A stretch of 64,000 nucleotides of DNA from a virus (IMGVR_UViG_3300049043_000070:122294-186293); one strand, 5' to 3'. Shown: positions 9,919 to 37,540, counted from the stretch's first letter. Program-made: numbers and translations. The notes: generated by a model from the sequence alone, not told the origin.

Positions 9919-10162
9919 GTGGATTATCGCTCAGGTAGAGGAGGTTGAGGGTGCCACTTCAATAGGTGACCCCGACTGTGTTTTACGAGAACCATATGTG
10001 GTAGAATGTGATGGTGAGATCTATTCATGGCCTCGTCATTCAAATGATCGTGAGGTGATTGTCAGATCTTCTGATATTACCACACTTGTCAATCCAAGTA
10101 CCAAGTTGCTTGCTACTTATCTACTCAAAGTTGATCCTCCAAAACCGCCAAAGTCTGAATGA
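9881..10162 (+). CDS. Hypothetical protein
   Basis: ORF overlapping the gp43 start. Confidence 0.65.
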   Translation: MEITANLLKLANEWIIAQVEEVEGATSIGDPDCVLREPYVVECDGEIYSWPRHSNDREVIVRSSDITTLVNPSTKLLATYLLKVDPPKPPKSE

Positions 10163-12659
10163 AGTTTTATACTAATGTTGAACAAGCTGGCAACCGATTG
10201 CTGGTACGTGGTTATGAATGTGGTAAAAACACAGAAGCGAGATATAGTGTTAGGGTTCCATTTAATCCTACACTATATCTCCCTTCAAAAAATTATTCTG
10301 AGTGGAGAACCCTTGAAGGAAATTGTGTAGAACCTCATAAGTTTGGATCTATTTCTGAAGCACGAGATTTTGTAAAAAAGTATGATCAAGTAGAAGATTT
10401 TCAAATCTACGGCAATACCAGATTTTTGTATCAATACATTGCTGAAGAACATCCGGAGGATGAGATTAAGTTTGATAGCAGTAAGATCCGTGTCTTCACA
10501 ATTGATATTGAGACCTCAGCAGAAAATGGATTTCCTGATGTAGCATCTGCCGATCAGGAAATTCTTGCGATCTCTATTAAAGATAGCTTTACTGGTCGCA
10601 TTACTGTTTGCGGTGCAGACCATTTGATAACAAAGATCCAATGGTTGATTACATGCATTTCCGTCAAGAAGAAAGCATGTTAACCGCTTTTCTGGATTAT
10701 TGGCAAGAGAACTATCCAGATGTGATTACTGGATGGAATGTACAGTTGTTTGACATGCCGTACATTCACAATCGGATTGATCGCATTTTGGGTGAAAAAT
10801 ATACAAAACTTTTATCACCGTGGAAACTTGTATCTCGCCGTGAGATCTTTATTAAGGGTCGCAAGCAGTTTGCCGTAGATACTCTTGGTATTTCTACTCT
10901 TGATTATCTTGAATTGTATAAGAAATTTACTTATACCAACCAAGAGAGTTATCGTCTTGATTACATTTGTAATGTAGAATTAGGTGCCAAAAAACTGGAT
11001 CACAGTGAGTTTGATACCTTCAAAGAATTCTATGAGAATGACTGGCAGAAGTTTATTGAATATAACATTCATGACGTTCGCCTTGTTGATCAATTGGACG
11101 ACAAGATGAAACTTCTTGATTTGGCATTTACTATGGCATATGACGCTAAAGTAAATTACGAGGATGTGTTCTCCCAGGTTCGTATGTGGGACAATTACAT
11201 TTTTGTAGAATTGTTGAAGCGCAAGATTGCCATTCCTCCCAAAAAAGAAGCTGTTAAAGATGCTAAGTATGCCGGAGCATATGTGAAGGAACCTATTCCT
11301 GGTTTCTATGACTGGGTTGTGTCTTTTGACCTCAATAGTTTGTATCCGCATTTGATCATGCAGTATAACATTTCCCCTGAGACTCTTATTAGACGAAAGA
11401 CACTCTGAGGCAAATGTTGATGATCTTCTAAACAAAAAAGTAGAAATCAATGGTGATCATTGTGTTGCTGCTAACGGCGCACAGTATCGTAAAGACATTC
11501 ATGGTTTTCTACCTCAGATGATGCAGAAGATGTATGACGGTCGTGTGATCTACAAAAAGAAAATGCTTGCTGCCAAGCAGCAGTATGAGAAAACACCCAC
11601 AGTGGAACTCATGAAGGATATTGCCAGATACAATAATATTCAAATGGCAAAAAAGATTTCTTTGAACTCTGCCTATGGCGCTATTGGTAACGAGCACTTC
11701 CGCTATTACAAACTGGCAAATGCTGAAGCGATCACTCTATCTGGTCAGCTCTCTATCCGCTGGATTGAGAATAAAATGAACCAGTATCTAAATAAGGTGT
11801 TGAAGACTGGTGACGTTGATTATGTGATTGCTTCTGATACTGATAGCATCTATCTGTGTCTTGATGCTCTTGTTCAAAATGTCTTTAGTGACACATTACC
11901 AGAGAAAGCAAAGATCGTTTCTTTCTTGGACAAGGCATGTCAAACACAGATTGAACCTTTCATTGAAAAGTCCTATCAAGAACTGGCTGATTATATGAAT
12001 GCGTATGATCAGAAGATGCAAGATGAAGCGGGAGAACATTGCCGACCGTGGCATCTGGACAGCAAAGAAGCGTTATATTTTGAACGTATGGGATAGTGAA
12101 GGTGTGCGATATACTGATCCAAAGATGAAAATCATGGGTCTTGAAACTGCTAGGTCTTCAACTCCAGCATACTTCAGAGACAAATTGTATGAAGCCTTCA
12201 AGATTATTATCGGCAAAACAAATGATGAACTCATCAATTTCATCAATGATGTCCGTGATGAAACCAGAAAGCGACCCTATTCCGAAGTTGCCTTCCCCAG
12301 AGGCGTCAACAATTTGGCAAAGTATCGCCACCCCACGGAGATTTACAGGAAAGGAACCCCCATTCATGTAAGAGGTGCTCTGCTCTATAACCATTATGTT
12401 AAAAAGCATAAGATTGAGCATAAGCATCAACTTATTCAAGAGGGTGAAAAGATTAAGTTTATGTATCTTAAAACTCCAAACATAATTCATGAAAACTGTA
12501 TCGCTTCTTGGTGAATTGCCACCAGAATTTGGATTGGAAAAGTATGTAGACTACCAGACACAATTTGAAAAATCTTTTCTTGAACCGCTCAAAAATGTGT
12601 TAGAATGTATTGGATGGAAACATGAAAAGGTGATCACGATTGGGAGCTTCTTTGAATGA
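10159..12659 (+). CDS. gp43: Family B DNA polymerase (several frameshifts)
   Basis: DIET exonuclease, SFDLNSLYP, K..LNSAYG, SDTDS motifs across ORFs 10159, 10608, 11518, 11999; total length normal, no intron or intein. Confidence 0.97.
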
Positions 12660-13827: not shown

Positions 13828-15203
13828 ACGTATTGAAGAAACTATCTTGCGTAATCTTCTCTTCAATGAGGAGTATTACCGCAAGGTAGTTCCATTTCTA
13901 AAAGCAGATTATTTCAACGAATATCATGAACGCATCATCTTTGAAGAGATTGCTGACTTTGCCAGTAAGTACGACAAAGTACCTACTCAAGAAGTTCTCT
14001 CAATCAACCTCCAATCTAGAAACGATCTTACAGAAGACACATTCCAAAGTTCCTTATCTACACTCAAGTCCCTCGGAAACGATTGGATTGACTATGGCTG
14101 GTCCTTGATGCCACAGAAAAGTGGTGTCAAGACAGAGCAATCTATCTCGCTCTCATGCTATCCATCAAGGTCGCAGATGGAGGTGATAAAAAACTATCAA
14201 AAGATGCGATCCCAGGTATCCTTCAGGAGGCCTGGCAGTATCGTTTGATGAACACATAGGACACGATTATATTGAACAAGCAGAAGAACGATATGATTTT
14301 TACCACCGTGTTGAAGAAAAAATCCCGTTTGATCTTGAAAAGTTTAATTTCATTACCAAAGGTGGTCTCCCCAATAAAACTCTCAATATCGCTCTTGCTG
14401 GCACGGGCGTCGGAAAAAGTCTATTCATGTGTCATATGGCTAGTGCCGCTCTCACACAGGGACGCAACGTACTCTATATTACATGTGAAATGGCAGAGGA
14501 GAAAATTGCTGAGCGAATTGACGCAAACTTATTGAATGTCAATGTCAAAGACATTGCTGAATTGCCTGAAGTTCTCTTTACTTCTAAAGTTCAAGAGATT
14601 GCTAGAAAGACTAGAGGAAAACTTATCATCAAAGAATATCCAACAGCATCAGCACACGTTGGACATTTCAAGGCATTACTCTCAGATCTTTCCTTGAAAA
14701 AAAGTTTTAAACCTGATATAATCTTTATTGATTATTTAAACATCTGTGCTAGTGCGAGGTACAAAGGTGCGATTGTCAATTCTTACACGTATGTCAAAGC
14801 GATTGCTGAAGAGCTGCGTGGTCTTGCTGTGGAGAACAATGTACCAATTGTCTCTGCTACTCAAACTACTCGCAGTGGTTATGGTAATAGTGATCCTGAC
14901 CTTACCGATACTTCTGAGTCTTTTGGTCTTCCTGCCACTGCTGACTTTATGTTTGCCCTTATTTCTACTGAGGAACTTGAACAACAGGGTCGCATCATGG
15001 TCAAACAACTTAAAAACCGATACAATGACCCAACTGCCTCTAGAAAATTCATGGTGGGAATTGACAGAGCGAAGATGAAGCTGTATGATGTAGCAGATGA
15101 TGCTTCTGCTATCAGTATAGATGCTGAAGACCCTGGCGAAGAGTTCGCCCAATTTGCCCAAACACAAAACCGTTTATCTAAATTTGCTGAGTGGAATGTA
15201 TGA
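13817..15203 (+). CDS. gp41: Replicative helicase (frameshifted)
   Basis: [40 protein letters not shown]. Confidence 0.96.
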
Positions 15204-15606
15204 CTATTGATTTTAATCGTTACAAAGAATTTGTTGCTGCCGTCACTTCAGATGCCTCAACAAACTTTGTTGATTTTGCCGATCGTATTGTAGAACTTGA
15301 TCGGCAAGGAGACTTAGCATTGAACGACTGCTTACTGCTGGAGTTGGAATTAATGCTGAAGGTGGCGAGTTTCTTGAGATTATTAAGAAGATGATTTTTC
15401 AGGGAAAACCTTGGAATGAGGATAATAAGGAGCATCTGATTATTGAATTGGGTGATATTATGTGGTATGTCGCTCAAGCAACCCTAGCACTTGGAATTTC
15501 ATTTGACGAAGTGCTTGAGCGAAATGTTAAGAAACTTGAAAAACGGTATCCAGGTGGACAGTTTGACATCTACTACAGTGAGAACAGAGCAGAAGACGAC
15601 CTCTAA
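15200..15606 (+). CDS. mazG: MazG-like nucleotide pyrophosphohydrolase (frameshifted)
   Basis: AEGGEFLEIIKKM..QGKP, ELGDIMWY, NV.KLEKRYP. Confidence 0.92.
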
Positions 15607-15649
15607 TTACAAACCTCCCTCTAAATACTAGCAGGGAGGTTTTTTTCTT

Positions 15650-17149
15650 ATGACTAAACAAATAGATTTATCTGGATTTGGTGCTGAATATAAAAAAGCA
15701 ATCAATGATATTATGGATTCTCTCGGGGATGAAAATTTCTCTTTTTATAATTTTGACGTAACAAAAATTGCTGATCCTACAGGCAGATCAAAAATTTTCT
15801 TTGCTCTTAAAGTAATTGTTCCCAGAGCAAAGAGAACAAAAGCAGCATCCATGATCGCACAAAATGTTGGTAGTAAAGGATATAGTGCGGTTGATACTAA
15901 AGGAACTGGAAATCAATTAGATATTTCTGTTGCTGGTAAAACTTTAAGAATTGATATTAAACCAGAAGGTGGTGGCTCGGGGTGGAGGCGCCGCTGAAAC
16001 TGCAAGAAATGAAGCAGCACAGTGTCTTTATGCTGCTCTTGCTTTTAACGTATACAGAAGAGAAATAGATGAAAATCTTCCTGTTTCATTAAGTGATCTT
16101 GAAAAAGCATCAACGACAATTGACGTTGATGTGCCCTTTGAGCAATTGCTTCCAGATGAATTGTCAAGAGAATGGCAGATATCTTCTATCAGGGGAGCAA
16201 ATAAACTGTGGCAAACTTTTCATAATTCGGGTAAACATTATATTTTTTGTAGAGGTGGTGGACCAGACGACAAGGAAATTAAAAGAGCATACCAACGAGC
16301 TAGAAGAAGTATGATGAAAGACCCTAATGTTAGGGTAAATTTTTCTTCTGAAGACAAATGGAATCCAGCAGATATCTGGATGGTATCGTCTACATTTAAT
16401 CCCAGTGATTTAGATAAGTATAAAACTGTTGATACAATAAACGAATTTATAAAAGAAAAATACGAAGAGAGAGAACTGATTGGTGTTTCTTTAAAAAAAT
16501 AAAAGATCAAGCAAAGTTAAAAGTTTTGAATTATGATCCAAATGATAAAATGAAAGAACTTGAAGATGTTAAATGGGGACAATATTGGGTAAAATTTAGA
16601 GATAATAAATTACTTGGCGGCGAAGATGCCTTCCCAATGGATGTGTATCTTTATTGGGTAAAAAATGGAAATCAAAGTCAAAGATTTCAATCAAGAAATT
16701 TTGGTGGAGCATCATCTCCATCTTGGCAGATAGAGAAGAAAGGAGCATCTGCAGCACAGGGTCGTTGTGGTGGTGGTAGCATAGTTGAAATTTTAAAATC
16801 TTTGGGTGTTTCTTATAGTGGCATTACAACTGGTTGGAATAATAGAACGTTGTGGCCGACTTGCAAACCAACAAATAAATCCAAGAAAGATCGTATCAAT
16901 GATCAATTAGTTGAATTGCTTGACAAATATTGCGGCACAAATACAGACACTGGATATCCTGGAAAAATACAAGCAAGAGTCGAAGTTGCTAATCAAACTC
17001 AATCTTACAGATATAGTAAGTTGATGGGTCTTCGTTTGTTGGATTGTATTTTAACTTCTGGAAAAGCAGATGAGATTATGAAAGCATTATATTGTTATGC
17101 TGGATCACAAACTGATAAATCATCGGTTCATGTAAAATTGATGGATTGA
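15650..17149 (+). CDS. Large protein with PD-(D/E)xK restriction-endonuclease-like core (frameshifted; 3 ORFs joined)
   Basis: E(AAQC)...WNPADIW...VSLKK; late-promoter-like CTAAATAC upstream. Confidence 0.55.
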
Positions 17150-17150
17150 T

Positions 17151-17169
17151 GGACAGTTTGAAACTGTCC
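17151..17169. promoter_or_regulatory. Palindromic operator-like site GGACAGTT-N3-AACTGTCC
   Basis: Perfect 8-bp inverted repeat upstream of ORF 17212. Confidence 0.5.
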
Positions 17170-17211
17170 CATACTTCGCACTCCCCAACCAAAATCGTGT
17201 ATTATAGATAG

Positions 17212-18416
17212 ATGGCAAACGTAACTCAACTCAAACACTTAGAACACCTTGAAGATGAGATGCTCAACTATGGAGTTGAGGGATGTGAATCTGCTGTATC
17301 TTTCTTGAAAGAATTGAGGAAGATGATGGGTCATCAAGAAAGCACTGGATTTATGCAAACGAAATGGGATGGTGCTCCTTCGGTTGTTTGTGGTGTGGAT
17401 CCTTTATCTGGAGTATTTTTTGTTGGCACGAAGTCTGTGTTTAACAAAACCGAACCTAAATATGTGCTACTGAAAAATCAGTTGATGACTATTACGATGG
17501 TGATCTAGCAGAAAAACTTAAATATTCTCTTCGTTACTTTAGTAAACTTGGTATCAAAGGAGTTATTCAGGGTGATTTATTATTTACTGATTCCACCAGA
17601 CACATTGAAACTGTAAATAAAGAACAACTCTACACCTTTAGACCAAACACTATTACTTATGGCATTCCTACTGACCACGATATTGGTAAAGAAGTTGGCA
17701 GAGCAAAAATTGGAGTAGTATTTCATACTCATTATACTGGTGATTGTCTTGCTGAAATGCAAGCACGAGCTGGTGCTCCCATCAATACTTTCAATAAAGT
17801 TCCTGAAGTAGCAGTGATTGCTAATGATACCCCCATGGATCGTGTTGGATTTTCAAGAGCAGAGATGGCACGATTTGATAGGTATATTGCTAAAATCAAT
17901 AGGATGTCTCAACTATGTGGAGACTTTCTGGATGATCTTGTCAGTAACTTTGGTACTACTGGTGATGCTAAGTTCCATATCTCTTCTTATCTAAAGCAGT
18001 TTTTTAATAGTGAGATCAAGAATGCTCGCAGCATTTCTAATATTGATGAGACCATAAACGAACTGGTTAATTTCTATCATGATAAAATGAGTAAAGAACT
18101 TGCCAAGATAAAGACACCAGCAAATCTTGTGACAAAAAGAAACCTTGTTTATAAAAGTGAGAACTACTTGTTGGATAATGTTTATAAGTTCAAGACCATG
18201 ATTGCTCTGTACAAAGAACTACAGGCAGTCAAGCAAATGGTTATAGATAAACTAGACCATCTTGAAGAGTTCAGAACTTTTGTTCAGACCGAGAAAGGAT
18301 ACAAGGTCACAACTCCTGAAGGTTATGTTCTTCATAAAGACGGTAGCATGATCAAGTTTGTCAATCGTCTGGAGTTTGCTTACAACAACTTCACACTACA
18401 AAAGCAATGGCGATAG
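17212..18416 (+). CDS. DUF6267-like protein with ATP-dependent ligase-type motifs (frameshift near 17460)
   Basis: TKWDGAP (KxDG motif I), EGYV (motif IV), IKFVNR (motif V-like). Confidence 0.65.
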
Positions 18417-22681: not shown

Positions 22682-23116
22682 ATGCCATTCAATTTAGACA
22701 AGCAAAAAGATCTTGCTGTTCTAGAAGGAAAATTTCAGATCTATGAAGATCTCTCTAAAGAGATGCTTGACAAACTTGAACGAGCAGTAGAAAAAATCAG
22801 CGAAGGAAATCAAAAAGTTGCTCTTATTCTCGCAAAGCACGAGGAAAAAATTGAGCAAGGTATTCGCGCAGACGAACTGATTATTAAAATGGTAGATGAA
22901 ATGCGCGAAGCAAATACAAGAGAGCACACTGCTGTCTTAGATAGAATTGAAAAACTTGAAAATAAAGTAAGTGATATTTCTAGATTTAGGTGGGTTGCTG
23001 CTGGTGTGGTAGCTGCTGCCATAATGATAATCGGATCATCAGAATTTTTTGGTAGCATATTGACAATGCCTCAGCGCGATGCTAACATAGAGAGTAGTGT
23101 TGACCGTGCCAAGTGA
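22682..23116 (+). CDS. Coiled-coil protein with C-terminal TM helix
   Basis: Long heptads then RWVAAGVVAAAIMII. Confidence 0.6.
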   Translation: MPFNLDKQKDLAVLEGKFQIYEDLSKEMLDKLERAVEKISEGNQKVALILAKHEEKIEQGIRADELIIKMVDEMREANTREHTAVLDRIEKLENKVSDISRFRWVAAGVVAAAIMIIGSSEFFGSILTMPQRDANIESSVDRAK

Positions 23117-24110
23117 GTTCTTTTATTGATGTAAAGTATATTCAACTCGTATCCTCTCGTCTTATTCTGTTTACACGCAAAAAAGCAGACCTGTATAATT
23201 TCAGGTGTCCATACTGTGGAGATAGTCAGAAGCGCAGAAATAAGGCAAGAGGATATTTGTTTAAGATCAAGAATGATTTTGTGTTTAAGTGTCACAATTG
23301 TGGAGCAGGCAGAACCCTCTCCAACTTCCTAAAGGACCAGGACACATTCCTTCATGATCAATACGTGATGGAAAAGTTCAAAGATGGTAAGACTGGCAAA
23401 GGAACTACAATTCCAAACCCAGTCTTTAATTTTCAGGAACCAAAGTTTTTCACTAAAATTGAAAATTCAGTTGATCTTGAAAAAATTTCAGACCTAAATA
23501 TTTCTCACCCGGCGAGAGAGTATCTTGAAAATAGAGGTATCAAAGATTTAGATTATTTTTATTATTGTCCAAAGTTCAAAGAATGGACAAACAAACAAAA
23601 GAAAACTTTTGATACCTTGCGCCAAGATAGTCCCAGAATTATCATTCCTTTCCGAGACAAAGATGGTAACCTTTTTGGATACCAAGGCAGATCGCTAGCT
23701 CCTAAAGCAAAACTCAGATACATCACGATCATGCTGGATGAAGGACAATCAAAAATTTTCGGACAGGATAGAGTAAATTACGATGAGAGATTATTTGTAA
23801 CAGAAGGACCCTTTGATAGTATGTTCATAAAGAACGCATTAGCAATGGCAGGTTCCGATGTTTCACTGTCTCAATTCTCAAAAGATACTGTATTTGTATT
23901 TGATAATGAACCACGCAATAAAGAGATTGTAGCAAAATATGAAAAGGTAATCAAAGCAGGATACTCAGTCGTGATTTATCCTAGCGGTATAGTAGAAAAA
24001 GATTTGAACGATATGTGCTTATCTGGACGTGATGTTCAAAGTATAGTAGAATGTAATATCTACAGCGGATTAGAAGCAACTCTTAAATTAAACAATTGGA
24101 AAAGGTATGA
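23113..24110 (+). CDS. gp61: DNA primase
   Basis: CPYCGD...CHNC zinc finger, RIIIPF, TEGPFDS, FVFDNEPRN TOPRIM, KDLNDM. Confidence 0.96.
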
Positions 24111-26431
24111 CAAACGGATACAACATTCAAGTTCGCAAGCGTAACGGGTCTGTAGAACCCATCAATCTTGATAAGATCCATAAGATGGTAGAAGAGGCTT
24201 GCGATGGGTTAGGGAGCGGCGTGAGTGCCTCTCAGGTGGAAATGAATTCCGGTCTTCAGTTCTTTGATGGAATTGAAACCAAGAACATTCAGGAAATTCT
24301 TGTTCGTTCTGCTAGCGATTTGATTAGTCTTGATAGTCCAAACTATCAATATGTTGCTGCTAGATTACTTTTGTTTGGACTTCGCAAACAAGTATTTGGT
24401 TCTGCCTGGTTGAATGGTTATCCTCATGTATTAGATCATACCTTTAAATGTGCGACAAAAGGAATTTATGACAAAGAAATTCTTGGTAAATATACCAAAG
24501 AAGAATGGGATAAGATCAACAGTTTTATTGATCATGAGCGAGATTTTCTCTTTACATATGCTGGTCTTCGCCAGGTAGTTGATAAGTATCTTGTTCAAGA
24601 TCGCAGTAGTGGAGAAGTCTATGAAACTCCACAATACATGTATATTATGATTGCTGCGACTTTGTTCCAGAACTATCGCAAAGACAGGTTAGAGTATGTC
24701 AAAAAATACTACGACGCAATCTCAAAGCACAAAATCAACATCCCTACCCCCATTATGGCGGGCGTTAGGACACCACTCAGACAATTTGCTAGCTGTGTTT
24801 CTTGTTGATGTTGATGACACCCTCGATAGCATCTTTAGCAGTGACATGGCTGATTGGCTGACTATGTTAGTCAAAGGGCAGGAATTGGCATCAACGCAGG
24901 TCGTATCCGTGGCATCAACAGCAAAATCAGAGGGGAGAAGTTACTCATACAGGTGTTATCCCATTCCTCAAAAAGTTTGAAGCAACTGTTAGATGCTGTA
25001 CACAAAACGGGATTCGCGGTGGAAGTGCTACTGTCCACTTTCCAATCTGGCACAAAGAAATAGAAGATATTATTGTATTAAAAAATAATAAAGGAACCGA
25101 AGATAATCGTGTTCGTAAGTTAGATTACTCAATTCAAATCAGCAAACTGTTCTATGAGCGTTTCATTCAAGACCAAGAAATCTCACTCTTCTCCCCACAT
25201 GATGTTCCTGGTTTGTATGATGCTTTTGGCACTGATAGATTTGACGAGTTATATGTGGGTTATGAACGAGATACATCTATTTCAAGAAAGACTATTGGAG
25301 CTCAAGAACTCATTTTGGACCTCTGAAAGGAGAGAGCAGAGACCGGTCGTATTTACATCATGAATATTGACCACTGCAACTCTCATTCTTCATTCAAAGA
25401 TAAGGTCAACATGTCCAATCTTTGTCAAGAGATTACACTACCAACAGATCCAATCAATCATATTGATGATAAGGAGGGAGAAATTGCTCTCTGTATTTTG
25501 TCTGCGATTAATGTTGGTAAGTTAAAAACTCTTGATGATCTTGAAGAACTTTGTGATCTTACTGTTCGTGGTCTTGAAGAACTAATTGATTATCAGAAAT
25601 ATCCTGTTGCAGCTGCCAGAAAATCTACTCTTGCTCGCCGTTCTCTTGGCATTGGTTACATTGGACTAGCACATTATCTGGCAAAAAATGGAGTAAAATA
25701 TGAAGATCCAACAGCATGGCAACTCGTCCATGACCTTACTGAAGCCTTTCCAGTACTATCTCCTCAAATCTTCCAACGCAATTGCCAAGGAGAAAGGAGC
25801 ATGTGAATACTTCCCAAGAACCAAATATGCTGACGGTATCCTGCCAATTGACACTTACAAGCGCGACATTGATGAGTTCTGTGATTCAACATTGAAGTAT
25901 GATTGGGAAGTACTACGTGCCGAGATACAAGCATCTGGACTACGACATTCAACATTGTCCGCACAAATGCCATCGGAAAGCAGTTCCGTTGTGTCAAATG
26001 CCACAAATGGAATTGAACCACCACGAGGATACATGTCCACTAAGAAAAGTAAAAAAGGGCCTCTTAAGCAGATTGTTCCGCAGTATGGGTCTCTTAAAAA
26101 TAACTATACTCTTCTTTGGGACATGAAAGATAATGATGGTTACATTAAAATTGTTGCCGCCATGCAGAAATTCTTTGACCAAGCAATCTCTGGAAACTGG
26201 AGTTATAATCCAGAAAATTATGATGACAACGAGGTTCCAGTATCTGTGATGGCAGGCGACCTTCTGAAGACCTACAAATATGGTTGGAAAACTTCATATT
26301 ATCAAAACACATATGACATCAAGAGTGATGAGCTTCTATTAACAGAAGACGAAAAGAAAAACTCAATCAAAGATCTACTAGACGACATTTTCAAAACGGA
26401 GGAAGAAGATTGTGACAGTTGTAAAATTTAG
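24107..26431 (+). CDS. nrdA: Class Ia ribonucleotide reductase alpha subunit (multiple frameshifts)
   Basis: ATP-cone start VRKRNG, PTPIMAG, SNLCQEI, QMPSESSS, C-terminal CDSCKI. Confidence 0.96.
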
Positions 26432-27590
26432 AGTTACAGAACCACAAAACGTAGAAGGTATGACAGTATTCAATACAAATAAAGTTGATACCACAAAACA
26501 GAAAATGTTTTTTGGACCTCCTTTGGGGGTTCAGCGTTATGATAAGTTCAAGTACCCTGTATTTGACAAACTGACACAACAGCAACTTGGATATTTTTGG
26601 AGACCTGAAGAGGTATCCCTTCAGAAAGATCGTGCTGATTATCAAACATTAAACGCAGCACAAAAACATATCTTTACTTCTAATCTCAAGTATCAAATTC
26701 TTCTTGATAGTGTTCAAGGTCGTGGTCCTGGTATGGCGTTTATGCCATATTGTTCTCTTCCCGAGCTAGAAGGTGCCATGAACATCTGGCAGACCATGGA
26801 AATGGTTCATAGTCGCTCATACACTCACATCATCAAGAATGTGTATGCTGATCCCTCTGAGGTGTTTGATAGAATTCTTGAGGATGACAAGATCCTTCAA
26901 CGTGCTCGTTCGGTAACTCGTTCATATGATGAATTCCTCCAAGCAGCAACAGAATGGGGAGCAGGAAACCAGTGGCAGCATCAGTTAGAAGGAACACCCG
27001 CAGCAAAGGACACTTTGTATGATCTCAAAAGAAAATTATATAGAGCAGTTGCGAACGTATATATCCTCGAAGGAATTCGGTTCTACGTATCGTTTGCCTG
27101 CTCTTTCGCTTTTGGTGAACTTAAACTCTTGGAAGGAAGCGCCAAAATCATCGGACTTATCGCAAGAGACGAAAGCCAACACATGACAATCACCCAGAAC
27201 ATTCTAAACAAATGGAAGGAAGGTGATGATCCTGAGATGGTTGAGATTGCTAAGGAAGAGAAAGAGAATGTCTATCAGATGTTTAGAGACTGTGTAGAAG
27301 AAGAGAGGCTATGGGCAGAGTATCTGTTCAAGGATGGATCTATCATTGGTCTCAACGACAAACTGTTGGCAAAGTATGTTGAATGGACTGCCAATCGTCG
27401 TCTCAAGTCCATTGGTCTCAAGGCAATCTTTGATACTCCTATCATTAACAATCCTCTTCCTTGGACAGAGCATTGGTTATCTTCTAAGGGCATGCAGGTT
27501 GCTCCGCAAGAGACAGAGGTTGAAAGTTACTTAATCGGGAGCATAAAACAGGATGTTAAGAAAGATACTTTCGCTGGTTTCAAACTTTAA
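26412..27590 (+). CDS. nrdB: Ribonucleotide reductase beta subunit
   Basis: FWRPEEV, LLDSVQGR, EMVHSRSY, LEGIRFY, RDESQH, APQETE. Confidence 0.97.
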   Translation: MTVVKFRVTEPQNVEGMTVFNTNKVDTTKQKMFFGPPLGVQRYDKFKYPVFDKLTQQQLGYFWRPEEVSLQKDRADYQTLNAAQKHIFTSNLKYQILLDSVQGRGPGMAFMPYCSLPELEGAMNIWQTMEMVHSRSYTHIIKNVYADPSEVFDRILEDDKILQRARSVTRSYDEFLQAATEWGAGNQWQHQLEGTPAAKDTLYDLKRKLYRAVANVYILEGIRFYVSFACSFAFGELKLLEGSAKIIGLIARDESQHMTITQNILNKWKEGDDPEMVEIAKEEKENVYQMFRDCVEEERLWAEYLFKDGSIIGLNDKLLAKYVEWTANRRLKSIGLKAIFDTPIINNPLPWTEHWLSSKGMQVAPQETEVESYLIGSIKQDVKKDTFAGFKL

Positions 27591-30751: not shown

Positions 30752-30765
30752 TATACTTCTTACAT

Positions 30766-30838
30766 GCCTCAGTAACTCAGAGGACAGAGTATCCGCCTTC
30801 TAAGCGGTTAACCGTTGGTTCGAATCCAACCTGAGGCG
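30766..30838 (+). tRNA. tRNA-Arg(TCT)
   Basis: Cloverleaf; loop CTTCTAA; TTGACA..TATACT promoter upstream. Confidence 0.9.
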
Positions 30839-30886
30839 TTGAGTTTTTTAAACTCTTATAAATAAACACATTAAAGGTCGAACATC

Positions 30887-30988
30887 ATGTCTAACTTCAG
30901 CAAGCAAATTGAGATTTTTATGGAAAGTGATTGCCGTTATTGGCATATTGCTCAGTCCCCCGTGCTTGCTCATAAGTGGAAACGATGA
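30887..30988 (+). CDS. 33-aa small ORF MSNFSKQIEIFMESDCRYWHIAQSPVLAHKWKR
   Basis: Manual translation; TATAAATA at 30857. Confidence 0.4.
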   Translation: MSNFSKQIEIFMESDCRYWHIAQSPVLAHKWKR

Positions 30989-31105
30989 CCGACATCTGAC
31001 ACATAAGCAAGATTTATCAGGGGGGCAGTTGACAAAACCGCCCCCCTTATTTTATTGTAAATTCATCGGTGGGTGATCCACCAGCACCTTGACAATTTAA
31101 TCTTT

Positions 31106-31178
31106 GGGTCTGTAACTCAGTTGGTAGAGTAGCGGGCTTTTAACCTGTAAGTCGTCGGTTCAAGCCCGACCAGACCCA
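31106..31178 (+). tRNA. tRNA-Lys(TTT)
   Basis: Cloverleaf; loop CTTTTAA. Confidence 0.92.
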
Positions 31179-31182
31179 TTGT

Positions 31183-31264
31183 GGGAGGATTTCCGAGTGG
31201 TTAAAGGAATCTGACTGTAAATCAGACGGCTCTGCCTTCACAGGTTCAAATCCTGTTCCTCCCA
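31183..31264 (+). tRNA. tRNA-Tyr(GTA)
   Basis: Loop CTGTAAA; long variable arm. Confidence 0.92.
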
Positions 31265-31268
31265 CCTT

Positions 31269-31340
31269 GGCCCTATAGTGAAGTGGTTATCACGCATCTC
31301 TGTCCAAGATGTATCACGAGTTCAAATCTCGTTAGGGTCG
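31269..31340 (+). tRNA. tRNA-Asp(GTC)
   Basis: CATCT-CTGTCCA-AGATG. Confidence 0.9.
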
Positions 31341-31343
31341 CCT

Positions 31344-31415
31344 GGTCTCATCGTCTAGTGGTTAGGACAACACTCTTTCACAGTGTAGACACGGGTTCAA
31401 GTCCCGTTGAGACTA
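31344..31415 (+). tRNA. tRNA-Glu(TTC)
   Basis: ACACT-CTTTCAC-AGTGT. Confidence 0.92.
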
Positions 31416-31417
31416 TT

Positions 31418-31492
31418 GGGAACATAGGCTCCAATTGGTAGAGCACATGGTTGAAGACCTTGGTGTTGTTGGTTCAAATCCAACTGTTCCCG
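31418..31492 (+). tRNA. tRNA-Phe(GAA)
   Basis: Loop TTGAAGA; acceptor GGGAACA/TGTTCCC. Confidence 0.88.
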
Positions 31493-31495
31493 CCT

Positions 31496-31569
31496 GGAAA
31501 CATAGCTTAGTTTGGTAAAGCATTCGACTGATAATCGAAAGACCACTGGTTCGAGTCCAGTTGTTTCCA
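31496..31569 (+). tRNA. tRNA-Ile(GAT)
   Basis: TTCGA-CTGATAA-TCGAA. Confidence 0.92.
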
Positions 31570-31572
31570 CTT

Positions 31573-31655
31573 GGAAGATTGGCAGAGCGGTTAATGCAGC
31601 GGTTTGCTAAACCGTGAGGGTAACACCTCCGTTGGTTCGAATCCAACATCTTCCG
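31573..31655 (+). tRNA. tRNA-Ser(GCT)
   Basis: Loop TTGCTAA; long variable arm. Confidence 0.92.
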
Positions 31656-31657
31656 TT

Positions 31658-31729
31658 GGCAGTGTAGTTCAGTGGTAGAACAAGAGATTCATACCCTCTA
31701 TGTCGGTAGTTCAATTCTACCCACTGCCT
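31658..31729 (+). tRNA. tRNA with CAT anticodon (elongator Met or Ile2)
   Basis: Loop TTCATAC; G1-C72 pair so not an initiator. Confidence 0.85.
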
Positions 31730-31730
31730 T

Positions 31731-31802
31731 GTGTCGTTAGCCTAGTGGTTAAGGCAGTGGTTTGTGGAACCACCCAGATGGGTTCAATTCCCATACGTCA
31801 CC
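31731..31802 (+). tRNA. tRNA-His(GTG)
   Basis: GTGGT-TTGTGGA-ACCAC. Confidence 0.88.
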
Positions 31803-31803
31803 C

Positions 31804-31873
31804 GTTTCAGTCGCCAAGTGGTAAGGCGGAAGTCTGCAACTTCCATGCGTTGGTTCGATTCCAACCTGAAACT
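31804..31873 (+). tRNA. tRNA-Cys(GCA), anticodon arm probably missing A residues through sequencing error
   Basis: GTTTCAG/CTGAAAC acceptor; GGAAGTCTGCAACTTCC. Confidence 0.75.
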
Positions 31874-31877
31874 CTAA

Positions 31878-31951
31878 TGAGAAATCGTCTAATGGTAGGA
31901 CACCTCCCTTTGAAGGAGTTTATCTAGGTTCGAGTCCTAGTTTCTCAGCCA
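31878..31951 (+). tRNA. tRNA-Gln(TTG) with encoded CCA
   Basis: CTCC-CTTTGAA-GGAG. Confidence 0.92.
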
Positions 31952-31952
31952 G

Positions 31953-32023
31953 TTGGGTTGGTGTAATTGGTAACATCTTGGTCTCCAAAACCAAAGTTCA
32001 GAGTTCAAGTCTCTGGCCCTTCG
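31953..32023 (+). tRNA. tRNA-Trp(CCA)
   Basis: TTGGT-CTCCAAA-ACCAA; top of acceptor stem imperfect. Confidence 0.82.
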
Positions 32024-32026
32024 CCT

Positions 32027-32101
32027 GTCCTCTTCAGCTCAGTGGAATAGAGCAATCGGCTACGAACCGATGTGTCGTAGGTTCAAATCCTACAGAGGAC
32101 G
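32027..32101 (+). tRNA. tRNA-Arg(ACG)
   Basis: ATCGG-CTACGAA-CCGAT. Confidence 0.92.
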
Positions 32102-32160
32102 CTTTTCAAAAAGGAGCTTGACAAGACAATCTAAATACCTTAGAATTACTCAGTAATTAT

Positions 32161-32247
32161 GCTCCAGTGGTGGAACGGTAGACACAGCGGACTTAGAATC
32201 CGCCGCCCTGAAAAAGCGTGGAAGTTCAAATCTTCTCTGGAGCACCA
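32161..32247 (+). tRNA. tRNA-Leu(TAG) with CCA
   Basis: GCGGA-CTTAGAA-TCCGC; long variable arm; TTGACA promoter at 32119. Confidence 0.92.
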
Positions 32248-32319
32248 GGGCGATTAACTCAGTGGTAGAGTGGCCTCCTTACAAGTGGTAAGTCACTGGT
32301 TCGAATCCAGTATCGCCCA
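32248..32319 (+). tRNA. tRNA-Val(TAC)
   Basis: Loop CTTACAA; GGGCGAT/ATCGCCC. Confidence 0.9.
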
Positions 32320-32687: not shown

Positions 32688-32902
32688 TGATCAATCTCCA
32701 TCAACGTTATAATCATTATCTTCACACCGACAAAAAACATGATCGGGTGAATGAAAATATTATAGGTTATGGGTGGACTGATGATGGTTCAGAATTGACT
32801 GGGTATTATGTCTTGACAGAACATCACAAGTTGTTCTATAATCTTCAAGAACAATTTCAATATATGGAAGGGTGGCCGAGTGGTTTAAGGCAACAGTCTT
32901 GA
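32687..32902 (+). CDS. Hypothetical protein (3' end overlaps tRNA-Ser)
   Basis: ORF abutting the previous stop. Confidence 0.5.
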   Translation: MINLHQRYNHYLHTDKKHDRVNENIIGYGWTDDGSELTGYYVLTEHHKLFYNLQEQFQYMEGWPSGLRQQS

Positions 32903-32949
32903 AAACTGTCGTGTGACGAGCACCGTGGGTTCGAATCCCACCCCTTCCG
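32866..32949 (+). tRNA. tRNA-Ser(TGA)
   Basis: ACAGT-CTTGAAA-ACTGT; long variable arm. Confidence 0.92.
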
Positions 32950-32993
32950 TTCCCTATTATTAGGGATGACATGTCGTTCAAATAATAAAAACT

Positions 32994-33875
32994 ATGTTAA
33001 TTCGTTCATTTATTGCTGCTGGTGTTGCTGTTGCTTCTATTGCTGCTCCTGCCATGGCACAAGTCACCAGTGTTTCACAACTGAAAGACGTTCAACCTAC
33101 TGAGTGGTCTTATCAGGCAATCTCAAATCTGGTTTCACGTTATGGTTGCGTTGCTGGTTATCCTAATGGCACTTTCCAGACCGGTCGCACCGCCACCCGT
33201 GCTGAACTTGCTGCTCTCACCAATGCTTGCCTTGATAACATCACTACCTTCTACAGTGAAGCAGATGCTCGTCTTGCCTCCGCTCTTCGTGCTGAGTTCT
33301 CCCGTGAGATTGCTGCTACGAACAAGCGTGTGACTGCTCTGGAAGTTGCTGCTGCTCAAAAGGCACAAGGCGTTGGTAACTATGTTGGTGTTGGCGTTCT
33401 TCTCAATCAGCAAGGCACTGCTGGTAATGGGTTCAGTGCTCAGCGTACCATCTCTGGTGCTACCGTTCAGGCACGTTATGCTGTGAAGAACTTCACCAAC
33501 CTGAATGCTGTTTCGGTTCGTCCTTATGCTAGCTTCGTAGGTACTCCTGCTGGTCAACTGGGTTCTGGTGGTGGCGCTCTAGTGTCTTATGATTGGAGCA
33601 TTTCTCGTGCCAAGTCTGGTGTGAGCCGTGCTAACGTCTACACTGGCGTTGGTTATCAGATCCCCTTCGTGAACAACACTGCTGCTAACTATCAGTCTGC
33701 TGTTGGTAATCGTGGTCAAGTTGTTCTTGCCATTGGCGTTGAAGGTCGTATCACCAACTCTCTGGTTGGTTTTGCTGATCTGAAGTTCCCTACGACCAAT
33801 GCCGCTAACAGCTACGGTGCTACTAACGGGACTTATTCTCCTGTGTTCACCACTGGACTTGGTTTCAAGTTCTGA
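32994..33875 (+). CDS. SLH-domain outer-membrane protein (Som/iron-uptake-porin-type N-terminus plus small beta-barrel)
   Basis: Signal peptide; DVQPTEWSYQAISNLVSRYGCVAGYPNGTF..R..TR.E.AA SLH; coiled coil; amphipathic strands ending GLGFKF. Confidence 0.85.
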   Translation: MLIRSFIAAGVAVASIAAPAMAQVTSVSQLKDVQPTEWSYQAISNLVSRYGCVAGYPNGTFQTGRTATRAELAALTNACLDNITTFYSEADARLASALRAEFSREIAATNKRVTALEVAAAQKAQGVGNYVGVGVLLNQQGTAGNGFSAQRTISGATVQARYAVKNFTNLNAVSVRPYASFVGTPAGQLGSGGGALVSYDWSISRAKSGVSRANVYTGVGYQIPFVNNTAANYQSAVGNRGQVVLAIGVEGRITNSLVGFADLKFPTTNAANSYGATNGTYSPVFTTGLGFKF

Positions 33876-33902
33876 TATAATGGGGAGAAATCCCCTAATA
33901 TT

Positions 33903-35211
33903 ATGATCTGGATTGATTCTATTTTTAACACTGGTCTTCTTATTGTGATGACCAGTGTTATTTCTGTTTTTATAGGAACTTTCACTGCTCTGTTTGCATG
34001 GAAAAGTAATCAACGATGGGCATACTTTCTCCCTCTGACGTAACACTTGCAGTTCCTCCTTGGTTGTTTACTTTTTACTTTAGTGAAACTTTTGGTATTG
34101 TAGATCCTTGGATTGGCGCTGCTATTAGCTTGGGAGTTTGTTGTAGTGTATATCCCCATAGTATTATCTCAAGCAGTTTAGCAAACCGAGCATATAAAGA
34201 TTGGGAAATGCTTCAGGTTATCAAAGGAAAGAACCTGAAGAGCTTAGCAATGGCAGTATATCCATCACTCAAAATTAGTTTACTTCCGAGCATCGCTATC
34301 GTTGCTGCTGAATGCATTACTGATTTCGGTGTATCAAACTTCTATGGATTGAATACCGTCACCATGCTCACGTATAATTTGTGGACGAGCACATGGAACT
34401 TTGGTTCTTTGGTGTGGGGTATATTCATTCTGTTGGCGATGGGTATATTGATTAGTCGTTTGGAAACGAATACGATTGTGAGTTTGACAAGTTCAAACAC
34501 CACACGAAAATCAAATGTTTATGGTATCATTGCTGTGCTGCCCACATTATCATTGTTATTATTTGGCATGGTAAAATCTATTGAATGGATTGTAATGCAG
34601 GGTAGTATTGATGTTGGTGATTTACTTTTTGAAGTTGGTAACACAATGCTCTTGGTTGGTATTGTAGTAGCAACTTGTATACTTGTTCTGATTTCTTATC
34701 TTGGTGGATTTGCTAAATCATTTACAAGGAGATTAGGATTGGCTTCGTATGCCATTCCTGGCACTGTAGTTGGTTCAGCATTTGTCTACCTATTGGGCGG
34801 CAAACTACCACTGATTATTCTTTTGACTTCAGCAATTACTTTCCGATACTTTGGTTTGATAATTCATTCGGTCTCAGTATCTGAAAAGGAAGTAAGAAAT
34901 ACTTTGAAGTAATTGATTTTTATACTCGTTCTAGATGGAAACAGTTAAATCAAAAGTTTAAACTGATCCTCTCTAGCATCATGATTGGAATGAGTTTGAT
35001 TATCTTAGATGTTTTAAGAGAGCTACCAATCTCAATGGTTCTTCAACCTGTAGAGTTTCAAACTCTCGCTATGAGGATGAGTTATATTGCCAAGACAGAA
35101 AATCCCACTCTTCTTGGATTTCATAGTATAATACTTTTACTGTTGGGAATATTTTTTAGTTTAGTCGTTGTGTGGATTACCTATGATAAAAGTAAAAAAT
35201 CTCATCATTGA
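33903..35211 (+). CDS. fbpB: Fe3+ ABC transporter permease FbpB/FutB-like (frameshifts near 34030 and 34905)
   Basis: NTGLLI...IGTFTALF; ECITDFGVSNFYGLNT; SYAIPGTVVG; DVLRELPISMVLQPVEFQTLA. Confidence 0.85.
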
Positions 35212-36140
35212 GAAACCAGATTTACAAATTAAAGACCTTGAAATAGATGAACACACAGTCATCATCGGACCCAGTGGTGCTGGTAAAACAACGTTCCTTC
35301 GTTGTGTTGCTGGTCTTGAGAACTATACTGGGGAGATTTACATTGATGGTGAACTGAAAACCGAAGTCGGATTAAATCGTGGTGTGAGTATGGCATGGCA
35401 GGATGGTAGGTTGTTGCCAAACTCTTCTGTTCGTGCTAATATTGAGTTGGGTGGCGATCCTGATTTAATTGAACACATGTGCAATCTATTCAAGATCGAC
35501 CATCTTCTTGATAAGATGCCTCACGAACTTAGTGGGGGTGAAGCACAACGAATAAATATCATACGAGCAATTTGTTCACCCGCAAAGGTGGTCTTGTTGG
35601 ATGAACCGATGCAGGGCATTGACCCTATCATTGTTCGTAAAACATTGAAACAGTTGCTCCATGAGCTGAAAGAAATATGATAAGATAGCATTGTTAGTCA
35701 CTCATGAACTTTATCAAGTTTATGGATTGTTTGATCGTGCTATCGTTATTAAACATGGTGAAACGATTGCACACGACGAACTTCGTTCGTTGTATGACAA
35801 TCCTTTATCACCTTGGATGGCTAACTTCTTTGGTGCATATACTGTATTGAATAAAGAAGACCTTAAAAGTTTTGAACACCATTCTAACGAAGATCCATGT
35901 ATGATCCGACCAGAATGGTTTAAAATCAAAATGCCTCCTTTTAAGAAACCTTTGGAGTTCAATGCTACTGTCACTGGCGTACATTGGGATGGTCCCAGTA
36001 CAAAAGTTTCCTTAGTGCTTGACGGCACAAACAAACCACTCGCTGTGGAGTTATACGCAGATTACGAAATCAAAAAAGGAGACAGAGTTTATGTCAATTT
36101 TAAGAAAAGCAGTCGCCCTACTTGGGTGCTTAACCGTTAG
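35183..36140 (+). CDS. fbpC: ABC ATPase FbpC/FutC-like with TOBE domain (frameshift near 35675)
   Basis: GPSGAGKT, LSGGEAQR, VVLLDEP, VTHE, P.SPWMANFFG, IRPEW. Confidence 0.9.
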
Positions 36141-37138
36141 CATCGGAGCAGTTCTACCTGCTGCCGCTGCCCCTAAGAAAACCGTTACCGTGATTACTGA
36201 CCGTAGCGATTTTCACCTAAAGCCTATCTTTGAGGCTTTTGAAGAAGCAACAGGTGTTGATGTTAAAGCAGTATTTGTGGATCAAGGATCTCTTCCTGCT
36301 CGTCTAGCATCTGGAGCAGACAAAGCAGATCTATTCATCACTACAGATCTTCCTACGATTGCTACAGCAAAAGAACAAGGATATACTCAACCAATTCTTT
36401 CTGGAAAAATCAGAACTCTTGATAGAGGATTTGTAGATCCACAAAGTCATTATGCTGCTATCAGTTTCCGTGGCAGAACGATTGTTTATAATCCTAAAAA
36501 AGTAGATGTAAAAACTTTGAGGGGTTATGATGATCTTGCTGATCCAGAATACAAAGGTCGTGTATGCATTCGTCCTTTCACTCATGTTTACAATGTAACT
36601 ATGCTGAGTGAAATGATCGTTGATCGTGGTGAAGCATATGCTCGTAACTGGGTGAATGGTGTGAAGAATAATCTTGCTGTGAAACCATCTGGTAATGATC
36701 GCAACCAAGCAAAACTGAGTTGCAAATGGAATTTGTGATCTTGCTTTGATGAACACTTATTACTATGGTCTACTTCTTTCAAATAAAGCTCAAAGACCTA
36801 TCGCTAATGCTACAGAACTCTTCTTCCCCAATCAGAGTGGGAAGGGAACTTATACGCTTTACAGTGGCGTAGCAATGGCAAAAACTGCCAAACACACCAA
36901 AGAAGCAATCCAATTGGTCGATTACCTGTTGGGTAATGTCGGACAAAATCATATCGCTCAAACTACATTTGAATATCCTGTAAATCCCAACATTAAACTT
37001 TCAGTTATTGCTGAAGGTTTTGGTGAGGGTCAACCTGGCATCAAAGATGGCAAAGCAAAATTTGCACGTATGAACCCCGCTAGAGTTGCTAAATATCGTG
37101 AGACCGCTGCTAAGATCTTGGCAGAGGCAAGCAAGTGA
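36091..37138 (+). CDS. fbpA: Periplasmic Fe3+-binding protein FbpA/FutA/IdiA-like (frameshift near 36730)
   Basis: Signal peptide; FEEATGVDV; ADLFITTD; GRVCIR..HVYN; GNDRNQ; MNTYYYG; EYPV. Confidence 0.88.
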
Positions 37139-37194
37139 TATAATGATCTGGGGGTTGACAAAACCCCCTTTTTAACTTATGATGAAACTTATAA

Positions 37195-37266
37195 CGGGGC
37201 GTAAGTCAGCGGTAGACGGCTTGCTTTGGGAGCAAGAAGACACTGGTTCGATCCCAGTCGCCCCGA
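37195..37266 (+). tRNA. tRNA-Pro(TGG)
   Basis: CTTGC-TTTGGGA-GCAAG; TTGACA-17-TATGAT promoter at 37155. Confidence 0.92.
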
Positions 37267-37294
37267 TCTTTCCTATATAATTTTTTAGGTGCCG

Positions 37295-37540
37295 ATGTCT
37301 TTTACCATCTACTCCAAAACAGGTTGTCCTTTCTGTGAGAAATGTATTGCTGTCATGGAACATGAAGGTTTCACACATGTAATTTATCAATTAGATAAAG
37401 ATTTTACCATTGATGAATTCTATGCTGAATTTGGCGAAGGATCCACATTTCCACAAATTACCTTGGATGGCATTCAACTTGGTGGATGTCAAGAAACTGT
37501 TAAATATTTACAAAAAAACAATGTCTGCTGCAATGTCTGA
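37295..37540 (+). CDS. Glutaredoxin (NrdC/NrdH-like)
   Basis: CPFC, TFPQI, GGC. Confidence 0.9.
   Translation: MSFTIYSKTGCPFCEKCIAVMEHEGFTHVIYQLDKDFTIDEFYAEFGEGSTFPQITLDGIQLGGCQETVKYLQKNNVCCNV

Follow-up and report, generated by a model that had tools for sequence, protein, structure and literature searches.

A compact FbpABC-type transporter, most likely for ferric iron, in the genomes of a T4-like cyanophage and other phages

We analysed a stretch of 64,000 nucleotides of viral DNA (IMGVR_UViG_3300049043_000070:122294-186293; hereafter, the window), which is the final 64 kb of an IMG/VR virus record of 186,293 bp with an estimated completeness of 96%, and concentrated on a gene cluster at positions 32994-37138 that resembles a ferric-iron importer of the ATP-binding cassette (ABC) class. 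The cluster comprises, all on the plus strand, a gene for a 293-aa protein that has an S-layer homology (SLH) domain (32994-33875), followed by genes for an fbpB-like fused double permease (33903-35211), an fbpC-like ABC ATPase (35183-36140) and an fbpA-like periplasmic binding protein with a putative signal peptide (36091-37138). The permease and ATPase genes overlap by 29 nt, and those for the ATPase and the binding protein by 50 nt, with identical overlaps in intact relatives. In the window, the permease gene is split into three pieces (33903-34037, 34040-34882 and 34885-35211), and the other two transporter genes into two pieces each. A sequence-only reading of the window had described these open reading frames (ORFs), the gene overlaps and four breaks in frame, all of which were reproduced, and had placed the cluster between two tRNAs; ARAGORN confirmed these as tRNA-Ser (TGA) at 32865-32950, on the left, and tRNA-Pro (TGG) at 37195-37266, on the right, both on the plus strand.

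The window phage is a T4-like cyanophage, whose DNA polymerase, primase and ribonucleotide reductase (RNR) genes share 76-79% DNA identity with those of Synechococcus phages S-H9-1, ACG-2014h, S-WAM2 and S-RSM4.

The permease yielded a confident AlphaFold model (AF2; pLDDT, the predicted score of the local distance difference test, 84.5; predicted template modelling score 0.82), whose sole full-length fold match was 9J4R_A, the FbpB of Thermus thermophilus (E 1.2e-11, TM 0.81/0.73, 454 columns); other ABC permeases matched one half of the model only. The same chain was the only PDB sequence match of the permease family profile (2.7e-14). A profile search of 1.84 billion representatives produced a sharp step, with 16 representatives below 1e-30, all of 363-448 aa except for the weakest (469 aa) and a few fragments, followed at 1e-30 to 1e-20 by hundreds of proteins of 500-560 aa that aligned over their full length to the permease. 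Four of these longer relatives were checked and scored against ModB-, CysT- and PhnU2-type permease models, below the curated cut-offs. The compact clade, of around 435 aa (395-448 aa), was found on phage contigs in every case examined. The short permease, which had been read as a sign of long residence in phages, is real and marks a long-resident, phage-associated clade (363-448 aa versus 500-560 aa). Its first and second halves contain the conserved motifs AAE-x3-DFG-x6-G and LRELPIS-x-ILQP, respectively, whose correspondence to EAA loops was judged by eye only. From the model and a hydropathy plot we assign, with moderate confidence, an arrangement of 5+5 rather than 6+6 helices, the plot itself being too noisy to fix their number. 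Both the sequence and the predicted fold suggest that the permease is a compacted FbpB.

The ATPase matched ABC_tran (PF00005) with an E-value of 2.1e-24 and carries the complete set of ABC motifs, among which GPSGAGKT (Walker A), LSGGE (signature), LLDEP (Walker B) and THE (H-loop) can be read. Its second-best PDB match was the Thermus FbpC (9J4R_B, 1.4e-29).

The binding protein of the window matched the Pfam families SBP_bac_6 (4e-13), SBP_bac_11 and SBP_bac_1, and inspection of its translation showed an N-terminus that begins with basic residues, continues with a hydrophobic segment and has an Ala-rich site ahead of the mature part. We searched the PDB with the intact relative P0002, which is 92% identical to the window's piece. 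All but one of the 29 matches at E <= 0.001 were ferric-iron-binding proteins, the 29th being an ABC binding protein without a name (3.6e-04), and no sugar-phosphate-binding or pyridoxal phosphate (PLP)-binding AfuA was among them. The best match spanned residues 33-302, and the window's own N-terminal piece gave the same result. At the top were 7LI0 (3e-56) and Synechocystis FutA1 (1.5e-50); others included Campylobacter cFbpA (2e-46), Mannheimia FbpA (6e-46), Bordetella FbpA (7e-44) and Trichodesmium IdiA (4e-43). All three parts of the transporter match ferric-iron systems best or nearly best, in support of the sequence-only reading.

Three tyrosines, Y167 (in HxYN), Y223 and Y224 (in NTYYYG; P0002 numbering), are at least 90% conserved across 22 family members, and the window's pieces keep all three (HVYN; NTYYYG). 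They correspond to Tyr144/200/201 of Tery_3377, the three C-domain iron-binding tyrosines of that protein (PMC6254336), and aligned tyrosines are visible in FutA1 and cFbpA. The binding protein also has an Arg in an N-terminal strand, common in the alignment to Bordetella FbpA and 7LI0, and the phage clade has its own conserved N-terminal motif, DRSDFH. Since the His-Tyr pair of FutA ('RHY') is replaced by Ser-Asp in the phage protein, the protein is not a class IV FutA, and its sequence fits better with the three-tyrosine type.

To place the indels we aligned the cluster to five independent metagenome contigs with intact genes, in which the permease, ATPase and binding protein have 435, 318 and 348 aa, respectively. 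Exactly four frame-breaking indels were identified: +2 at 34038-34039 and -1 at 34883 in the permease, +1 at 35668 in the ATPase and +1 at 36718 in the binding protein. Reading through, with X at each break, yielded products of 436, 318 and 349 residues with no further stop. The ratio of non-synonymous to synonymous substitution rates (dN/dS) of the transporter genes against intact relatives was 0.06-0.12, and 0.06-0.10 in the comparisons that include the window. Similar damage occurs elsewhere in the record: as compared with the four indels in 3.2 kb of the transporter, the DNA polymerase gene (window 10159-12514) is broken into at least four ORFs, with four frame-breaking indels in 2.5 kb relative to S-H9-1, and the primase-nrdA-nrdB region (window 23113-27590) contains up to nine in 4.5 kb relative to S-WAM2. 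Additionally, the same phage is represented by a second consensus (JGI 3300045937, contig Ga0496538_0793, 184,645 bp; our L101/L102). In the 8.5 kb surrounding the polymerase, three 1-nt indels and no substitution separate it from the window, and all four polymerase frameshifts are common to both. Over 6.85 kb around the cluster, indels account for 7 of the 15 differing columns; two of them break the SLH gene in the second consensus, and one difference lies right at the 34038 site. Because a phage with a fourfold-frameshifted polymerase would not be viable, indels shared by both versions are errors of the consensus and not mutations. The four transporter frameshifts are almost certainly errors of assembly or consensus and not decay, bearing out an earlier suspicion. 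More generally, the record is riddled with 1-2-nt indels, making gene calls, and absence calls built on them, unreliable.

The permease-ATPase-binding protein (B-C-A) module, with the same overlaps, was present on six or more phage contigs, which are independent, come from different samples and have different phage neighbours; no fewer than four or five distinct phage backgrounds are represented. On a 187-kb contig (L003) its neighbours are psbA, lysozyme and glutaredoxin genes; on two contigs of 272-309 kb (L005 and L095) it is flanked by five 2-oxoglutarate (2OG)-Fe(II) oxygenase genes on one side and by the T4 genes for gp15, gp13 and sheath on the other; on a 75-kb IMG/VR contig (L094) it lies behind S21-like, IF3-like, Hsp20-like and ClpS-like genes; and on an 83-kb phage-like contig (L099) there are PIF1, GyrB and Tad2-like genes nearby. 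A 306-kb IMG/VR contig (L096) carries a more distant copy. Identities within the phage clade range from around 45% to 92%, with strong purifying selection. A tblastn search of 50,697 records of phage isolates, in which near-identical records may be masked, returned only an unrelated 28% match in a gut phage fragment, so that the module appears absent from isolates. Within IMG/VR, a scan for close relatives with the binding-protein piece gave no match, and an alignment-based scan found three contigs only.

Three of these loci deserve separate mention. In the 272-kb contig (L005, 1-5736), the FbpBCA unit directly follows the five 2OG-Fe(II) oxygenase genes and a tryptophan-halogenase-like gene, a suggestive juxtaposition of an iron importer and iron-dependent enzymes. 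Upstream of FbpBCA in L094 (3096-4824) there are ORFs whose translations, judged by eye, resemble IF-3, ribosomal protein S21, Hsp20 and ClpS, and this phage may infect a host other than a cyanobacterium. In L099, whose copy of the transporter diverges most, genes for a Tad2-like (anti-Thoeris) protein and for EAL-domain and HDOD-domain proteins occur a few kb downstream of it (14087-18074).

The sequence-only reading had also included an SLH porin in the operon, and this part failed. The SLH protein, which matched PF00395 with an E-value of 1.3e-09, consists of a signal peptide, the SLH domain, a coiled coil and a beta-rich C-terminal part of around 165 aa ending in Phe. Its gene is the orthologue of S-PM2p168, annotated as a putative S-layer protein, with which it shares 76% nt identity, only in-frame indels and the same length class. 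The family comprises more than 1300 clusters of around 290 aa, many of them on phage-sized contigs, with the top 120 at least 81% identical, and the window protein has the features of the S-PM2p168 type: around 280-300 aa, an SLH domain, a conserved C-terminal part ending in GLGFKF and occurrence on contigs of cyanophage size. Against the 'iron uptake porin' model NF033921, which describes SomB-type proteins with SLH and OprB parts, it scored 97.8 bits (cut-off 100), matching just positions 1-107 of the 485; the SLH and coiled-coil part is shared, but the OprB barrel is not, and we found no match to OprB (PF04966) in this protein or anywhere in the genome. As a positive control, the 493-aa porin of L003 scored 294 bits against the same cut-off over the full length of the model. 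The window protein is 53% identical to this porin over the SLH domain and coiled coil (residues 23-122), with no similarity beyond residue 122. We conclude that the SLH gene is of a known cyanophage type, that it adjoins the transporter genes without demonstrably belonging to them, and that its product is not an OprB porin.

Genuine porins do accompany the module elsewhere. In the sister phages L003 (4296-5777) and L009 (3-326), a gene for an SLH-OprB 'iron uptake porin' lies directly upstream of the same three transporter genes, whereas L008, the closest relative of the window, has a short SLH gene at this position, like the window itself. The proposed pathway from the outer membrane to the cytoplasm is not supported for the window phage, whose genome gave no OprB match, but does hold for the two sister phages, with their full-length porin. 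A phage-encoded SLH-OprB porin seems noteworthy in its own right.

The monomer model of the SLH protein was poor (pLDDT 47), with a long helix followed by around eight strands. Modelled in three copies, the protein scored 0.50, and the best control 0.00. Of proteins solved as pairs, 20 of 30 reach this mark, as does 1 of 23 solved as single chains; the runs agreed in at least 83% of contacts, with a partner pLDDT of at least 68. The predicted interface is formed mainly by the SLH domain and heptad positions of the coiled coil, not by the barrel, and the result may reflect a likeness to solved SLH/coiled-coil trimers. We regard the protein as probably a trimer anchored to peptidoglycan.

Several promoter-like and terminator-like elements, all on the plus strand, frame the cluster. 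A perfect sigma-70-like match (TTGACA, 18 nt, TATAAT; 12/12) lies at 32813-32842, ahead of tRNA-Ser and the SLH gene, and a second promoter-like site (TGGACT, 16 nt, TATAAT, with an upstream TG; 10/12) at 33854-33881 overlaps the end of the SLH gene, 22 nt upstream of the permease start; both are consensus matches only. The second site is followed immediately by a hairpin, GGGGA-GAAA-TCCCC, at 33882-33895. After the binding-protein gene, a terminator scan identified an intrinsic-terminator-like hairpin with a T run, GGGGGTTGACAAAACCCCC, at 37150-37178, which closes the transporter unit and is conserved, by alignment, downstream of the binding-protein gene in L003, L008, L009 and L010. Its loop contains TTGACA, a perfect -35 box, and TATGAT occurs 17 nt further on, at 37178-37183, together giving a promoter-like match of 11/12. 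From its sequence, the element at 37150-37183, which precedes tRNA-Pro, may double as a terminator and a promoter.

The window contains 19 tRNA genes (ARAGORN), in a zone at 30765-32319 and at 32865, 37195 and 38778, with 15 of them packed almost without gaps at 31105-32319, so that the transporter is inside a tRNA-rich zone. An NrdC-type glutaredoxin gene (37289-37540) directly follows tRNA-Pro. In S-PM2, the SLH gene occupies the same place beside the tRNA array, but no transporter follows it. NrdC is likewise near the SLH gene in S-PM2, and the transporter therefore looks like an insertion into a conserved neighbourhood.

Among the closest known systems is the FbpABC of Thermus thermophilus (cryo-electron microscopy of FbpBC, 9J4R; TtFbpA, 3WAE/4ELO), which likewise combines a fused double permease, an ATPase (with a C-terminal regulatory domain, as compared with a weakly detected TOBE-like tail in the phage) and a periplasmic Fe3+-binding protein. 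Identity to the phage system is, however, 18%; the phage permease has around 435 aa as compared with 490-560 aa, and TtFbpA matches the phage binding protein only weakly (4e-16). The phage module further differs in being virus-encoded, in its B-C-A order with overlaps and in a permease that is missed by the Pfam model BPD_transp_1. For the binding protein, the best or near-best matches are the three-tyrosine FbpAs (Bordetella 1Y9U/2OWT, Mannheimia 1Q35/1SI0 and 7LI0), in which the three C-domain tyrosines are kept and the N-terminal strand has Arg, as in the phage protein, where FutA has His-Tyr; identity is nevertheless only around 35-40%, and the phage clade has the DRSDFH motif of its own.

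The FutABC/IdiA system (Synechocystis FutA1 2PT1 and FutA2 2VOZ; Trichodesmium 6G7N; Prochlorococcus 8C4Y) is likely the host counterpart. Its binding proteins belong to the same family and use the same three tyrosines (PMC6254336), but their N-domain His-Tyr ligands correspond to Ser-Asp in the phage protein. The picocyanobacterial FutA (8C4Y) was the weakest cyanobacterial match (3e-32), far weaker than 7LI0, and the phage gene is therefore not a recent copy of host futA. Among nutrient genes of phages, T4-like cyanophages are known to encode PstS, the periplasmic binding protein of a nutrient ABC importer (PMC3037559, PMC10452541). Phages with pstS encode the binding protein only and need the host PstCAB, whereas the window phage also encodes a permease and an ATPase, for iron and not phosphate on our reading.

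We considered whether the cluster might be cellular DNA misassembled into a phage contig, by host contamination or a chimeric join. The gene family is typically cellular, and the flanking tRNA genes are common sites of recombination; but the same module and overlaps occur on the six or more phage contigs with different neighbours, and the G+C content of the transporter genes (37-40%) equals that of the phage background. Moreover, the nearest cellular homologues, from 185,579 species genomes, are at most 39% identical among the matches listed. The 80 cellular loci listed were all non-cyanobacterial and mostly proteobacterial, in a scan whose pattern required a Cys lacking in FutA and could not have found FutA itself. 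At the one cellular locus examined, the genes are arranged A-B-C and encode a permease of 577 aa and an ATPase of 256 aa, unlike the phage module. We consider an origin by misassembly hardly conceivable. The claim that a complete FbpB-FbpC-FbpA-type importer resides in the phage stands, with its recurrence in several unrelated phage backgrounds as the principal reason, and, as had been stated, the cluster has phage genes on either side (the tRNA array, NrdC glutaredoxin, DNA polymerase and RNR). We regard it as very unlikely, in turn, that the four frameshifts are true mutations and the transporter a decaying, non-functional remnant. All four transporter indels do occur in both consensus versions, and just one (34883) is in a homopolymer run, so that most are not classic homopolymer errors. 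However, the frameshifts of the essential polymerase are also shared by both versions, and sharing does not make an indel real; essential genes show an equal indel density, the two versions differ from each other largely by indels, also at the 34038 site, and the added stops and relaxed dN/dS of a remnant are not seen.

Functional alternatives concern the substrate and the SLH gene. The importer might work on another substrate, such as another metal or oxyanion complex, an iron chelate, 2-aminoethylphosphonate or a phosphorylated sugar. The best NCBIfam matches of the three parts include the 2-aminoethylphosphonate components PhnS, PhnU2 and PhnT, the N-domain protein ligands of FutA are missing, and cyanophages carry phosphorus-acquisition genes such as pstS (PMC3037559). 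There is also a precedent in AfuABC, once wrongly called an iron system: AfuA binds sugar phosphates (PMC4546632), and proteins of this wider family were misassigned to iron earlier. Every one of these NCBIfam matches, however, is far below its cut-off (e.g. 41 bits versus 310), and no NCBIfam family exceeded its cut-off for any of the three parts. The PDB matches of the binding protein are almost exclusively iron binders, the tyrosine triad is conserved across the phage clade, the permease matches FbpB only, and an iron-uptake-type porin adjoins the module in sister phages. A phosphonate importer in particular was rejected on the PDB matches and the tyrosine evidence, and a different substrate is on the whole improbable. 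It is also unlikely that the short SLH protein acts with the transporter as a small oligomeric barrel channel, completing a full envelope-spanning pathway. Its gene is directly upstream in the window and in L008, where sister phages have a true porin, and a signal peptide, SLH domain, coiled coil, around eight predicted strands, C-terminal Phe and the trimer score would all suit such a channel. Conversely, the family is very widespread, also in phages without a transporter at the locus, such as S-PM2; it has no OprB domain or similarity to a porin barrel, its monomer fold is unreliable and the predicted contacts are mostly outside the barrel. Eight strands per chain are, besides, the size of anchor-type barrels and not of general porins.

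Together, our results favour, with a probability of about 0.78, a genuine, long-resident and phage-adapted FbpABC-type importer, most likely for ferric iron, in which the frameshifts are errors and the SLH gene is separate. Several points weigh against this interpretation. Profile checks recovered PF00395 in the SLH protein and PF00005 in the ATPase, but the permease had no Pfam match at E <= 0.01, including BPD_transp_1 (PF00528), and none of 59 related 90%-identity permease clusters has a precomputed Pfam domain; the proposed TOBE domain of the ATPase likewise stayed below cut-off (TOBE_2, 18.9 bits versus 21; TOBE_3, 18.4 versus 27). The permease is shorter than cellular FbpB by around 85 residues, having lost roughly the first 45 residues and some loops, and it may not be competent. 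The phage binding protein lacks the His-Tyr pair found in the N-domain of cyanobacterial FutA, with SSRHY of FutA2 aligning with its TDRSD, and the mode of metal coordination is assigned by analogy. The NCBIfam matches and the AfuA precedent described above count on the same side.

For iron binding, transport and expression by the module we infer the following scheme from sequence. The compact FbpB-like permease (around 435 aa), FbpC-like ATPase (318 aa) and FbpA-like binding protein (348 aa) would form one overlapping B-C-A unit, between the promoter-like site and the terminator, that would be expressed during infection. The signal peptide would export the binding protein to the host periplasm, where the three tyrosines of the C-terminal domain would capture Fe3+. 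A synergistic anion, held by the conserved arginine, would probably complete the site instead of the His-Tyr pair of FutA; from the Mannheimia and Bordetella structures we take an exogenous anion of this kind to complete the Fe coordination in the three-tyrosine type. Iron would then pass to the phage's own permease-ATPase complex, and the infected cell would gain iron uptake without any host ABC subunit. The iron could serve the class Ia RNR, 2OG-Fe(II) oxygenases and the photosynthetic apparatus.

We found no description of FbpABC or FutABC in a cyanophage in the literature searched, in agreement with the sequence-only reading; a 2026 preprint describes complete ABC transporters near pspA in huge phages, with no link to iron. 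The module is apparently undescribed, and it is set apart from known FbpABC systems by a clade of short permeases missed by Pfam, its B-C-A order, a set of ligands unlike that of FutA and its spread among phages. This compact permease, invisible to Pfam, is a natural minimal FbpB of potential use in work on the structure and mechanism of type I importers.

A broader proposal, to which we give somewhat better than even odds, is that compact, self-sufficient Fe3+ importers, with an FbpB of around ten helices, an FbpC and a three-tyrosine FbpA, are kept and exchanged among T4-like aquatic phages, some of them with a SomB-type porin, and that infected cyanobacteria import iron via viral machinery. 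Iron limits primary production across large areas of the ocean, and infection by cyanophages affects a sizeable fraction of picocyanobacteria. With the known nutrient genes of cyanophages, such as pstS, a host transporter gains just one binding protein; here, all three ABC parts are present, and sister phages add a porin. If true, this would be the first complete multi-subunit nutrient transporter in the auxiliary gene set of a cyanophage, and phages with the SomB-type porin would possess a complete route from the outer membrane to the cytoplasm. If functional, a virus-encoded iron route in infected cells would change how their iron uptake and demand are modelled, and would offer a concrete, testable counterpart to ideas linking phages and iron. 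It would also represent a direct viral lever on iron cycling in iron-limited waters.

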